From the IMG/VR virus record IMGVR_UViG_3300026549_001121, positions 1-64,000 of that record: DNA of 64,000 nt; one strand, 5' to 3'. The DNA is from a virus. Shown here in pieces: positions 12,128 to 23,617 of this stretch; positions within the stretch are counted from its first letter, which is position 1, and the number at the start of each line of letters is the position of its first letter. The notes under the pieces are model-generated. The model was not told the DNA's origin and searched no databases. It saw only the letters and a program-made list of their open reading frames with translations. Position numbers and translations under genes: made by a program.

Positions 12128-12321
12128 ATGACACAAAAATATTTAGATGAACAAGGCACTCAATATTTAATTAATAAAATATTAACATTATTAGAGCAAA
12201 AAGTAAATATTGAATCGGGAAAAGGTCTATCTGAAGAAGATTTTACCACAGTATTAAAACGTAAATTAGAAAATTTAGATTTAAATATATCTATTTAGGA
12301 TGATATATTAATAATAGAGAA
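12128..12321 (+). CDS. small structural-module protein (one in-frame TAG, or stops at 12297)
   Basis: AGGAGG RBS, ATG at 12128. Confidence 0.4.
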
Positions 12322-12333
12322 AGGAGAATAATT

Positions 12334-15015
12334 ATGGCAGTAATAAAAAAAATAAAGTTAAATGATAATATTTATAATGTTGCCGCAGATTGGAATGATA
12401 TTGATAATAAACCTACTATTCCCACAAAAACCTCAGATTTAACCAATGATAGCGGGTTTTTAACTCAACATCAAGATATTTCTGGTAAAGAAGATGTATC
12501 AAATAAGGTTAATTTAGTATCTAATAATTCAACAGATAATCAATATCCTTCTGCAAAATGTCTTTATGATAGAACTCATTGGGTTAATGTTGATAATATA
12601 GATAATGCTATTGATTAGGATTGTTTTTATATTTATACAACAGGAACTAGTTATAATAAACAAATTTATTTTTTAATTTGTGTAGGAGATAATGTAGAAA
12701 ATTCAGGTGGGGTCAGAACTCAATATAGATGTAATGCGACTCCTGGCACATGGGAACGAACTATTCAATATCGCTCTTAGAGATATAGTAATTCAAAAAA
12801 TGGTTGGATTAATGATAAAGATGAGGTTGGAGCATGGACTGATTGGACATCTATCAGTAGTTCATCAGGCGGTGCAACAGTAGATGCTTATACAAAAGCA
12901 GAGATTGATACTCAAAGGGCGACCATTTTTAATACAATAGATGAAACTGCTATATAGTCTTTAATTAAACAATATGATTTACTTGTTTTAGAAAATAATG
13001 AATAGTTTAATACTTATGGAACTCAAGAATTAATTGATTATATAGAGGCTGACCCTAAAGAAGATACAGATTATACAACGTCTAATGTTCCAGATAATTT
13101 AAATGGTCATTATGAAGTGCCTTTAGGCTTTGAAATTACCATTCCAGAAGGTGGAAAAATAATTACTATATTTGATACAGTAATTAAACAATCTTGGATT
13201 GATAATATTGAAAACAATGAAAACAAATGGGCTAATATTACTATTAATCAAGATAATCAAAATAAATATTATATTACTAATTTAATTCCAAATAGGTTAT
13301 ATACATATACAATTAAAAACAGTAATGGGGAAATAATAGATACTGGAAAATGTCAAGCAAAAGATTCAATTCGTTTTATTGATGCAGGAAAAGTTGTTCC
13401 TTATAATTTAACCGATCCAACAGTGGTTAATACAGCAACGCGCCAATACTATAATATTCGAGACCTTGGTGGTTGGTCTTGTGATGGTGGAAATAAATTA
13501 AAATATGGTGTAATTTATCGTGGTTGTGAATTAAGTGGAACTTATACTTTTGGAACTTCTCCTGGCACTAAGTATGGATTTTAGTTACCTGATTATCAAA
13601 AATCTTTATTTAAAGATTTTTTAAAGATAAGAGATGAAATTGATTTACGTTAGAATAGTTTTATTCTTGGAACTAGTTATACTGAAACAGCCGGAGACGA
13701 TGGTGATTATGATACCGTTGATGATATCGATGAATCGGCTATTGGGGCAGGCGTTAGTTATGGACATTTTCCTGGCATTGGATATAAGTTAAACGAAGAT
13801 GTAATTGTTACTGTAGATGGAGAATAGATAACTTATAATAGTCGTATTCATTATATAAATGCTATTAAACGAATAGCGCAAGATATTCAAAATAATAAAC
13901 CTATATATATACATTGCTCTGCGGGAGCGGATAGAACTGGAACATTATGTATGCTAATAGAGGCTTTATGTGGAGTTTCAAAGGCTGATTTAGATAAAGA
14001 CTATGAACTTACTTCATATTCTAAAAATTTTAAAAGTCAACAAAATACAAGAAAACGTCTGAGTAATGATTGGAAAAATTTATTATCTTATATTAAAAAT
14101 AATTATGAGCCTTATAGTGAATCTTTTCGAGACCAAGTTATAGCATTTTTAATTTAGTCAGGAGTAACTATTGATGAAATTAATATTATTAGAGGTGGAC
14201 TAATTGATGGGACTGTTGATAATATTAAACATCCATATGCCAAAACTGATATTGTTGTAAATTTAACAAATGCTTCAATAGATAATGATATTACAAAAAT
14301 TGAAAAATATTCACCTTTTAAAGCAAAAATTTCTGTAAAAGATGGGTATGTTTTAAATTAGTTATCTATTACTATGAGTAGTTCAGGTCATACTTCTGAT
14401 ATAACTAACTCTGTATATTCTAATGGAATAATTAATATTCCTAAGGTTATAGGAGTTGTTCATATTACAGGAACGGCCGTACCCGATAATACGTTATATT
14501 AGACTTTAATTACTTCTAATAATAAACTTTCTAGTGATTTAGTTGATGATACTAATTCTAATAATAGATTTGTTACACCTGCCAATAAATCGACTTGGAA
14601 TAGTAAATATACAAAACCAAATACTGGTATTCCTAAAACTGATTTAGCAGATGATATATAGTCAAGTTTAACAAAAGCCGATAATTCTGCTTCTATTGAA
14701 ACTGGTACTATTACAAATAATTATGGTTGGTACGATGCAGGAACTTAGTTAACAGGGTCGTATACTTTATTTGGTGATTTATGTATTATTACTGGATATG
14801 CCGAGGTAAAAACTGGTCGGGGTGAAATTTGGTATTCGTTACCAGTAGCCGCGGTGCAAGGCGCAGCCGCAATAGCCATGGATGGCGGAAATTATTATTG
14901 TATTGGAACATCTGCAAAAGATAATGTTTCAGTAATGCGTATAACAAAAATGGATGGAGAGGATTTTCCTGAAAATAAAACAATTCATTTTGTATTAACT
15001 TATAAATGTCAATAA
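12334..15015 (+). CDS. tail fibre-like protein with tyrosine-phosphatase-like (Y_phosphatase3/PTP) domain; about 14 in-frame TAG codons
   Basis: One frame from 12334 to the TAA at 15013, joining track ORFs 12334-, 13117-, 13951- (same frame). Motifs NIRDLGGWSCDGG…KYGVIYRG and HCSAGADRTG (CX5R). TNDSGFLTQHQDISGK fibre repeat. Confidence 0.7.
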
Positions 15016-15036
15016 AATAAGGAGGTTTTTAATTAA

Positions 15037-15282
15037 TGGAACCAATAAAAACTTATACATTAGAAAAATTAAATGAAACAACCGTAAATGTTTTAATAAT
15101 TACTACTATTGAATTGAATGGAAAAACTTATGAAATTGAAAGAAGCCGTACTTGTTATGGGAATTCCCCTATTGGAAGATCTCAAATTGCTGAGTATTTA
15201 CCAGAATAGTATGTTCGAGCCATTTTAGAAATTTGGGGCGAAGAACCGACAATGATTGATCCAGAGCCACCAGAGGAATAAT
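15037..15282 (+). CDS. hypothetical structural-module protein (1 TAG)
   Basis: AAGGAGG RBS; frame kept through TAG to TAA. Confidence 0.5.
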
Positions 15283-23248: not shown

Positions 23249-23251
23249 GAG

Positions 23252-23497
23252 GTGATTCCGTTGTCCGGAACCATCATCGTCGCCCTGCTGAGCCTGCTCG
23301 GTTCACTGGGCGGCACACTCGGCGGCATTGCGCTCAATTCCAAACTGAGCAACTACCGCATTGAACAGCTCGAAAAAAAGGTCGATAAGCACAACAACCT
23401 GATCGAGCGAATGTTCAAGGCGGAGGAATCTATCAACCTGCTCGACGAAAAAATCAAGGTTGCAAATCACAAGATTGACGACCTCGAAGAAAAATAA
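23252..23497 (+). CDS. membrane protein with coiled coil (holin/spanin-like?)
   Basis: N-terminal TM helix followed by heptad repeats. Confidence 0.35.
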   Translation: MIPLSGTIIVALLSLLGSLGGTLGGIALNSKLSNYRIEQLEKKVDKHNNLIERMFKAEESINLLDEKIKVANHKIDDLEEK

Positions 23498-23509
23498 GGA
23501 GGAATAAAA

Positions 23510-23617
23510 AATGAAAGAAAAATTTATCAAATGGTTAAAGGCGGCAGGAATTCGCGCACTTAAAACCGCCGCGCAAAAAGCCGAAGCATTTGATTATTTA
23601 ATAGGCGGTGAATAAAA
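23510..23617 (+). CDS. small protein (35 aa)
   Basis: AGGAGG RBS, …IRALKTAAQKAEA…. Confidence 0.3.

Follow-up and report, generated by a model that had tools for sequence, protein, structure and literature searches.

A 64,000-nucleotide stretch of viral DNA (positions 1 to 64,000 of IMG/VR record IMGVR_UViG_3300026549_001121; hereafter, the window) was analyzed for its use of the codon TAG, which occurs in-frame in a subset of its genes, and for a phage-encoded tRNA with the matching anticodon CUA. The window has a GC content of 33% and is part of a large uncultured AT-rich phage genome, as judged from its many tRNA genes, from near-identical DNA in two ENA metagenome assemblies (L001 and L002), and from the lack of a GenBank match. 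A megablast search of the region from 12 to 24 kb against GenBank phages returned a 49-nucleotide match only and no described close relative. More distant relatives were found among ENA, Logan, and IMG/VR contigs of 169 to 240 kb, and the whole genome is probably 170 to 240 kb in size. The names of the records point to the rumen as a possible source. A terminase was not identified in the window.

The locus comprises a plus-strand block with tail fiber-like genes and a diversity-generating retroelement (DGR), consisting of a target gene, a template repeat, and a reverse transcriptase (RT) gene, as well as minus-strand endonuclease genes, a tRNA array, and two gene blocks that are nearly devoid of in-frame TAGs (Table 1). 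Besides the long open reading frames (ORFs), eight smaller plus-strand genes carry zero to two TAGs each.

Table 1. Features of the window (aa, amino acids; TAGs, in-frame TAG codons; L005, L007, and L017 are contigs of relatives)
Feature	Position	Strand	Length	TAGs	Basis or remark
Small ORF	12128-12331	+	67 aa	1 (codon 57)	First gene of recoded plus-strand block; homolog in L005/L007
Tail fiber-like protein with tyrosine-phosphatase domain	12334-15015	+	893 aa	12	Pfam Y_phosphatase3; paralog alignment
Small ORF	15036-15281	+	81 aa	1	L007 homolog 65% identical
Fiber-motif protein (SAYEIAVDNGF...)	15483-15875	+	130 aa	2	
DGR target (fiber/receptor-binding)	16200-18167	+	655 aa	9	55-69% identical homologs across TAGs
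DGR variable region (VR)	18017-18159	+			Within 16200-18167
DGR template repeat (TR)	18287-18429	+			
DGR RT	18648-19862	+	404 aa	5 (aa 89, 119, 212, 311, 403)	Pfam RVT_1, aa 71-273
Recoded gene	19859-20140	+		2	
Recoded gene	20145-20348	+		2	
Recoded gene, CBM_5_12	20341-20745	+		2	Pfam
Recoded gene	20738-21286	+		2	
Phosphatase-fiber paralog	21299-23248	+	649 aa	0	
XhlA-like small membrane protein	End of plus-strand block, within 21299-23497	+	81 aa	0	
DUF2726-type endonuclease, Cys-rich repeats	24237-25160	-	307 aa	2	L007 ortholog 74% identical
DUF2828/phrog_850 "RNA-binding protein"	25277-26827	-		0	Between two recoded endonuclease genes; L007 ortholog TAG-free
DUF2726-type endonuclease	26874-27608	-	244 aa	5	L007 ortholog also 5 TAGs
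Suppressor tRNA, anticodon CUA	28996-29071	-			ARAGORN; Rfam tRNA, 41.9 bits; encoded CCA; L007/L017 orthologs
tRNA-Gln(UUG)	33247-33322	-			A1.C72 unpaired, G73, CCA
Secreted/lipoprotein-like protein	45126-45761	-	211 aa	1 (aa 134)	
MFS transporter	45928-47154	-	408 aa	1 (aa 35)	MFS_1 match
Block A (TAG-free block)	61-11988	-	19 ORFs, 3742 codons	1 (1/129 Gln-type codons)	SPFH/flotillin, three metallophosphoesterases, RlaP-like, MVP/vault-like, HD proteins
Block B (TAG-bearing block)	12128-21286	+	11 ORFs, 2775 codons	38 (38/112, 34%, of Gln-type codons)	
Block E (TAG-free block)	47713-63347	-	26 ORFs, 4822 codons	3 (3/185 Gln-type codons)	M28 peptidase, DUF5052, isochorismatase, NAPRTase

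Reading frames across in-frame TAG codons

ORFs were bounded by TAA and TGA only. Defined in this way, the long TAG-bearing ORFs lay exactly where a first-pass annotation, made by a model from the sequence alone, had placed them, with the number of in-frame TAGs corrected from about 14 to 12 for the tail fiber-like gene at 12334-15015 and from about 8 to 9 for the DGR target gene at 16200-18167. Since TAA and TGA together account for approximately 5% of random codons at the base composition of the window, an 893-codon frame that lacks both is not a product of chance (P of about e^-47). The TAGs were found inside conserved domains instead of at protein ends. In the 893-aa product, the Y_phosphatase3 domain (aa 371 to 598) spans the TAGs at 417, 440, and 498, and its alignment with the TAG-free paralog encoded at 21299-23248 passes through six TAGs. 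Similarly, the MFS_1 match of the transporter begins at aa 25, upstream of its TAG. Both fiber-like genes, 12334-15015 and 21299-23248, carry Y_phosphatase3 with an HCxxGxxR-type motif.

Treating TAG as a sense codon increased the coding density from 0.577 to 0.908 between 12.1 and 28 kb and from 0.665 to 0.835 across the whole window, whereas the control in which TGA was treated as sense yielded 0.630 and 0.711, respectively. These values, obtained with a simple greedy ORF-based caller and not with Prodigal, provide the comparison of codes 15 and 11 that had been suggested as a check, and the window exceeds the coding-density gain of at least 10% used as the criterion for recoding in a survey of jumbo phages (PMC13037316). 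Full-length products are present in a public protein collection (P0001, 99% identical), and the gene tables of L001 and L002 list genes of 893, 655, and 404 aa; therefore, a code 15-aware gene caller has already processed this phage.

Stop codon usage pointed in the same direction. Among 62 genes in five blocks, 51 are terminated by TAA and 11 by TGA, with no TAG terminator. All 45 ORFs of blocks A and E run from a start codon to TAA or TGA, and a TAG stop is possible in at most four small or terminal cases; such cases include codon 403 of the RT gene. Small TAG-containing ORFs within the tRNA array were left out of these statistics. Such array ORFs, among them 33745-34457, 40985-42014, and the N terminus of 38494-39207, were rejected as genes because they represent translated tRNA genes.

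Recoded genes occur on both strands, as had been proposed. The RT and MFS genes named as examples were recovered, but an RHH gene and a bona fide HNH gene with TAGs were not confirmed in the window. The HNH gene was not found between 27.6 and 28.9 kb, where the relative L007 carries one in the equivalent position. Neither code 11 nor code 15 yields a convincing ORF in any of the frames of this segment of approximately 1.3 kb (27609-28887), and its translations show tRNA-like remnants.

The DGR itself has the adenine-specific pattern that is diagnostic of such elements, with all 34 differences between VR and TR located at template adenines. Its template holds an in-frame TAA opposite a TTG of the VR, and an unmutated copy would bring in a stop.

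Amino acid at TAG and the CUA tRNA

For the RT, TAG was masked as X and 120 homologs were aligned. The column at aa 89 contained Q in 119 of the 120 homologs and that at aa 212, the Gln of the SQ motif identified by the first-pass annotation, in all 120; the remaining three TAG sites are variable columns. In the endonuclease encoded at 26874-27608, Q was the top residue at four of five TAG columns (84, 70, 30, and 26 of 120 homologs), and columns of its ordinary CAA and CAG codons vary over the same range of conservation. The alignment of this protein with its own internal repeat could be reproduced: the TAGs at aa 10 and aa 29 stand opposite Q77 and Q96 of the second repeat, and the other two repeat TAGs stand opposite E and R. 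The TAG at aa 67 of the CBM_5_12 protein aligns with Q in solved structures of Vibrio deacetylases, which certainly use the standard code. The predicted fiber motif NNTWEqVG, with the lowercase letter denoting TAG, was located at aa 66 to 73 of the DGR target product.

Because close database homologs may themselves be code 15 translations, a codon-level DNA comparison was made. It covered 21 curated genes and the DNA of four divergent relatives (L003, L005, L007, and L010), with TAG-TAG pairs excluded. Of the 102 remaining pairs, 36 placed TAG opposite CAA or CAG. When substitution frequencies from these alignments were applied, Gln had the highest log-likelihood (-250), followed by Lys as the runner-up (-356). 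Comparison with homologs thus yielded Gln-rich TAG columns and codon exchange mainly with CAA and CAG. Within genes, TAG positions were distributed like those of CAA and CAG (Kolmogorov-Smirnov test, P = 0.55), and the 5' bias predicted for an early-abort gate was not seen, TAGs showing no difference from CAA and CAG in this respect. When TAG is counted, Gln-type codons make up 4.0% of block B versus 3.4 to 3.8% in the TAG-free blocks. As judged from these alignments and codon comparisons, TAG is a sense codon and stands for Gln.

ARAGORN and Rfam placed a tRNA gene with anticodon CUA at 29000-29070 on the minus strand, in agreement with the first-pass annotation. Each of the refuting conditions named in that annotation was checked, and each result favored its reading. 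Including the encoded CCA, the gene extends from 29071 to 28996; these limits were adopted because most tRNAs of the array encode CCA and because of the pairing in the Infernal alignment, in which positions 2 to 7 pair with 66 to 71, positions 1 and 72 are left out, and the 3' strand of the T stem contains one extra A. The acceptor end consists of an unpaired G1.A72, G73, and CCA. Apart from tRNA-Gln(UUG), no tRNA of the array shares its G73 together with a true 1-72 mismatch. Orthologs of the CUA tRNA keep both features with other bases, namely, U.C in L007 and L017 (a 183-kb contig) and U.U in L013 and L014. Retention of the mismatch with differing bases suggests that an open 1-72 position is under selection. 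The identity set of glutaminyl-tRNA synthetase (GlnRS) includes a weak or unpaired 1-72, G73, G10, U35, and A37, and the CUA tRNA has U35, A37, G10, G73, and the unpaired 1-72 of the Escherichia coli set. Minimum free energy folding of the CUA tRNA was uninformative (z = -1.2).

The CUA tRNA gene is located at the far end of an array of approximately 31 tRNA genes and a transfer-messenger RNA (tmRNA) gene, all on the minus strand, that extends over approximately 17 kb (28888-45913) and covers nearly all amino acids. An Asn-like tRNA fragment at 35960-36021 was detected by Rfam only. The "tRNA-Thr(GGU)" at 28888-28961 was called by ARAGORN only; it is very AT-rich, lacks CCA, and is probably degenerate. 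The array also harbors a full-length ROOL RNA at 32309-32913 on the minus strand (Rfam RF03087, 338.8 bits, model positions 1 to 574). The tmRNA gene (29570-29879, minus strand) lies approximately 500 nucleotides from the suppressor tRNA gene and encodes the tag ADYSAYKMAA, with the tag frame ending in TGA. A possible role of this tmRNA is to assist in the release of ribosomes that have run past the TAG stops of host genes. In L017, a tmRNA was not found within approximately 2 kb on either side of the CUA tRNA ortholog. The unrelated huge phages L012 to L014 (IMG/VR contigs of 68 to 499 kb) have two CUA tRNAs each, arranged in tandem in L013 and L014. One of each pair shares its anticodon arm with the CUA tRNA of the window, and the second one of L013 and L014 has an E. 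coli-like acceptor end (U1, G2-C71, G3-C70, and G73).

Partition of TAG-bearing and TAG-free genes

TAG use was bimodal, with a higher share of TAG among Gln-type codons in block B than in block A (Fisher test, P = 1e-13) and in block E (P = 3e-15). The single TAG of block A is codon 4 of ORF 3660-3983, counted from the farthest upstream of its possible starts, and the earlier statement that 61-11988 has no internal TAG holds except for this longest version. TAG is not simply rare in block A, because 73 and 37 TAG triplets occur in its two other frames. Two of the TAGs of block E fall within codons 1 to 35 of the longest ORF, and the third is codon 57 of the 66 codons of the small ORF 60448-60648. 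TAG-bearing and TAG-free genes have no difference in GC or GC3 (P = 0.87 and 0.36, respectively), which indicates that the split is not compositional.

A similar division was observed in relatives. In L007 and L008, the orthologs of the RlaP-like, MVP-like, HD, and DUF2828 genes are TAG-free, while those of the fiber, DGR, and endonuclease genes carry TAGs. Five IMG/VR relatives, from contigs of 169 to 240 kb, showed the same split in the neighborhood of the MVP-like gene. Relatives share it largely, with TAGs nevertheless present in some of their co-oriented genes. The split is not purely block-wise: the fiber paralog at 21299-23248 and the XhlA-like gene are TAG-free within the plus-strand block, and recoded endonuclease genes flank a TAG-free gene. 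On the basis of these gene comparisons, the partition exists and is conserved.

Several TAG-free genes deserve mention in their own right. The MVP-like gene (8670-11144, minus strand) contains MVP_shoulder and Vault_3 domains and is kept in all relatives examined. The phage also encodes the DUF2828/phrog_850 "RNA-binding protein" (25277-26827, minus strand) and an SPFH/flotillin protein (61-1545, minus strand). Genes for an isochorismatase-family protein (56752-57318), an NAPRTase (62154-63347), and a NUDIX protein (31139-31702), all TAG-free and on the minus strand, suggest a phage NAD-salvage set.

Interpretation and alternative explanations

Very probably, the phage uses genetic code 15, in which TAG is read as Gln in a subset of genes by the phage tRNA with anticodon CUA and only TAA and TGA terminate translation. 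The CUA tRNA would most likely be charged with Gln by the host glutamine-charging system, because it has C34-U35, A37, G10, G73, and an unpaired 1-72, as in the phage tRNA-Gln(UUG). It would then compete with host release factor 1 (RF1) at UAG. TAG-free genes (61-11988, 47.7 to 63.3 kb, and a few others) should be translatable at any time in a host with the standard code, whereas TAG-bearing genes (12128-21286, the two homing endonuclease-like genes, and the MFS gene) would be synthesized in full length only once the suppressor tRNA outcompetes RF1. The need for this tRNA would delay expression of the TAG-bearing genes. Genes with up to 12 TAGs would require efficient suppression, and low-level read-through is unlikely because of the tandem TAG-TAG at codons 14 and 15 of the DGR target gene. 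We infer the charging enzyme, the competition with RF1, and the role in timing, the last from a published model, and consider temporal staging plausible.

A number of observations weigh against this explanation or parts of it. The evidence for code 15 in this phage is sequence evidence. Homologs have K or Y at the position of RT aa 119, L or I at RT aa 311, and S at aa 49 of the endonuclease. Part of the homolog set is itself translated with code 15, rendering the Q counts partly circular for close relatives, but the codon-level tally and the matches in the Protein Data Bank are free of this circularity. Among the larger window ORFs scanned, neither release factor 2 (RF2) nor an aminoacyl-tRNA synthetase was found. 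Base pairs 2-71 and 3-70 of the CUA tRNA are C-G, as in the L007 and L013 orthologs, and not G-C as in E. coli tRNA-Gln, and its T stem is bulged. Overall, the tRNA is no closer to tRNA-Gln than to others, its nearest counterparts by plain identity being Val, Gly, and Met tRNAs. Of the tRNA-Gln identity described in the first-pass annotation, the positional elements G73 and the 1-72 mismatch were retained as arguments, and the likeness of its D arm to that of tRNA-Gln(UUG) was dropped together with overall similarity. The C-G pairs and the similarity ranking also count against an origin as a simple mutated tRNA-Gln. With regard to timing, the functions of the TAG-free genes are accessory or unknown, and these genes include no recognizable early markers, PHROGs annotation of 47.7 to 63.3 kb gave no timing clue, and the TAG-free fiber paralog and a putative XhlA-like holin are located in the same plus-strand block as the recoded genes.

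The main alternative for the partition, possible though doubtful, is that TAG stands for Gln but the split is historical, with TAG-free genes having been imported from standard-code donors or being more constrained and CAG-to-TAG drift having affected only old, fast-evolving genes such as fibers, DGR parts, and homing endonucleases. The TAG-free genes do include auxiliary functions (NAPRTase, isochorismatase, SPFH, metallophosphoesterases, and M28 peptidase), and the TAG-free fiber paralog at 21299-23248 has a GC content of 38.6% versus 29.7% for its recoded paralog at 12334-15015. CAG is depleted in TAG-bearing genes (10/74 versus 78/310; P = 0.03), which fits CAG-to-TAG drift where TAG is tolerated. 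In L005, the corresponding module has a GC content of 50 to 56% and uses CAG as its only Gln codon. Within 11100-19355 of this contig, the GC content rises from approximately 30% to 45 to 56% at the fiber-phosphatase gene, where Gln codons are CAG only; this jump means either that the assembly is chimeric or that the module was imported recently. However, there is no overall difference in GC or GC3 between the two groups of genes, and no TAG-free gene ends in TAG, which shows their adaptation to the code. Relatives with only 64 to 81% protein identity likewise lack TAG in these genes, which points to maintained avoidance and not to recent import.

A rather unlikely extension of the code 15 explanation is that the gene-by-gene split acts as a conserved translational timer in an undescribed family of 170- to 240-kb phages, in which the supply of an atypical CUA tRNA times the fiber and DGR genes. 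It is suggested because the split holds in relatives that are 64 to 81% identical and cuts through single operons, as in the case of TAG-free and 12-TAG fiber paralogs in one block or of the RNA-binding gene between the recoded endonuclease genes. The switch would be the CUA tRNA with its always unpaired 1-72, C-G at 2-71 and 3-70, and aberrant T arm, encoded at the distal end of the 17-kb tRNA/tmRNA/ROOL array.

Programmed leaky termination, with TAG mainly serving as a stop, partial read-through, and truncated proteins as the main output, is very improbable. In its favor, RF1 is presumably present in the host, the window ORFs scanned yielded neither RF2 nor an anti-RF1 function, and a few TAGs lie near the ends of ORFs (RT aa 403 of 404 and codon 57 of 67 in 12128-12331). 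Such a mechanism is difficult to reconcile with twelve TAGs in one ORF and the tandem TAG-TAG of the DGR target, with catalytic motifs downstream of TAGs (RT YMDD and phosphatase HCxxGxxR), with the spread of TAG positions like that of ordinary Gln codons, and with the presence of TAGs at the same sites in relatives.

Even less probable is the assignment of TAG to another amino acid, i.e., Lys, Glu, Tyr, Leu, Trp, Ser, or pyrrolysine. Some TAG columns are rich in K, Y, L, or S in homologs, a TAG is opposite E in the SAYEIAV/GTAEEWL motif of a paralog, and ARAGORN labels the CUA tRNA "Pyl." This label follows from the anticodon alone. tRNA-Pyl is recognized by a short D loop without GG, a 6-bp anticodon stem, a 3-nucleotide variable loop, and the absence of TPsiC, whereas the CUA tRNA has a canonical 8-nucleotide D loop, AAUGGUUA, with GG; its anticodon stem is 5 bp long and its T loop reads TTCGATT, and it thus does not have the architecture of the pyrrolysine system (pylT). 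In addition, Gln was ahead of all other amino acids by more than 100 log units, and two RT columns are invariant for Q. Finally, the notion that the genome uses the standard code and that these genes are pseudogenes or were broken by errors of sequencing or assembly can practically be dismissed, since nothing beyond stop codons under code 11 speaks for it, and the frames are interrupted by TAG only and never by TAA or TGA, the independent assemblies L001 and L002 carry the same TAGs (215 aligned TAG-TAG positions were counted, mostly from these near-identical assemblies and including ORFs in noncoding frames), 19 of 46 aligned window TAGs are retained in the divergent relative L007, and a matching tRNA is present.

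Code 15 recoding of this kind is already well described in gut phages, and the present case has its sequence-level hallmarks of in-frame TAGs within genes, gain in coding density, alignment of TAG with Gln, lack of TAG terminators, and a CUA tRNA. TAG recoding with suppressor tRNAs is known from Lak, crAss-like, and six further gut phage clades. In these, Gln was the best match to TAG in alignments, recoding favored structural and lysis genes, and it was modeled as a late-gene gate (Borges et al., bioRxiv 10.1101/2021.08.26.457843). For crAss-like phages, code 15 was proven by metaproteomics (Peters et al. 2022, PMC9523058). In phAss-1 ("Phassvirus"), many ORFs characteristic of phages contain TAG, and suppressor tRNA genes are present (Babkin et al. 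2023, PMC10607447). Jumbo phages with recoding occur in animal guts, including the rumen (PMC13037316).

The phage studied here resembles Lak, crAss-like, and "gemstone" phages in its low GC content, in-frame TAG for Gln, phage CUA tRNA, lack of TAG terminators, large genome, and many tRNAs, and apparently also in a concentration of recoding in structural genes next to a standard-compatible gene set without TAG. Unlike in those phages, no "code-change module" with RF2 or tRNA synthetase was seen in the window. The contig sizes of its relatives (169 to 240 kb) overlap the size range of the larger recoded clades, among which are named Lak, crAss-like, Jade, Sapphire, and Agate phages. Lysis genes were the most recoded in two published lineages that were analyzed, whereas the putative holin-like gene is TAG-free here. 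The crAss-like phages (PMC9523058) also read TAG as Gln in a standard-code host but differ in phage group, genome size, and the availability of peptide evidence, as opposed to sequence alone. As in phAss-1 and the recoded jumbo phages, TAG in many phage ORFs is accompanied by suppressor tRNA genes; phAss-1 has 136 kb and three such genes, compared with one CUA tRNA in the window and relatives of 169 to 240 kb.

A bacterial counterpart of the CUA tRNA is the E. coli amber suppressor supE (glnV), a tRNA-Gln with anticodon CUA that inserts Gln at UAG, and amber suppressors can be mischarged by GlnRS. The phage tRNA shares with supE the anticodon CUA, G73, a weak or unpaired 1-72, G10, and A37. 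It differs in C2-G71 and C3-G70 and in its bulged T stem, and it is a distinct gene and not a point mutant of the phage tRNA-Gln.

These findings leave the knowledge of TAG recoding as a phenomenon unchanged, and their practical weight lies in annotation. Between 12 and 28 kb, annotation with code 11 misses or breaks up about one-third of the coding sequence, including the tail fiber genes, the DGR target, and the RT; gene calls, host range prediction, and DGR analysis of this phage therefore need code 15. The window, with its ENA, Logan, and IMG/VR relatives, would add a family of 170- to 240-kb phages to the lineages that switch the meaning of TAG during infection. Its clean, conserved split (0 versus 34% TAG among Gln codons) may serve as a test case for the late-gene gate model.

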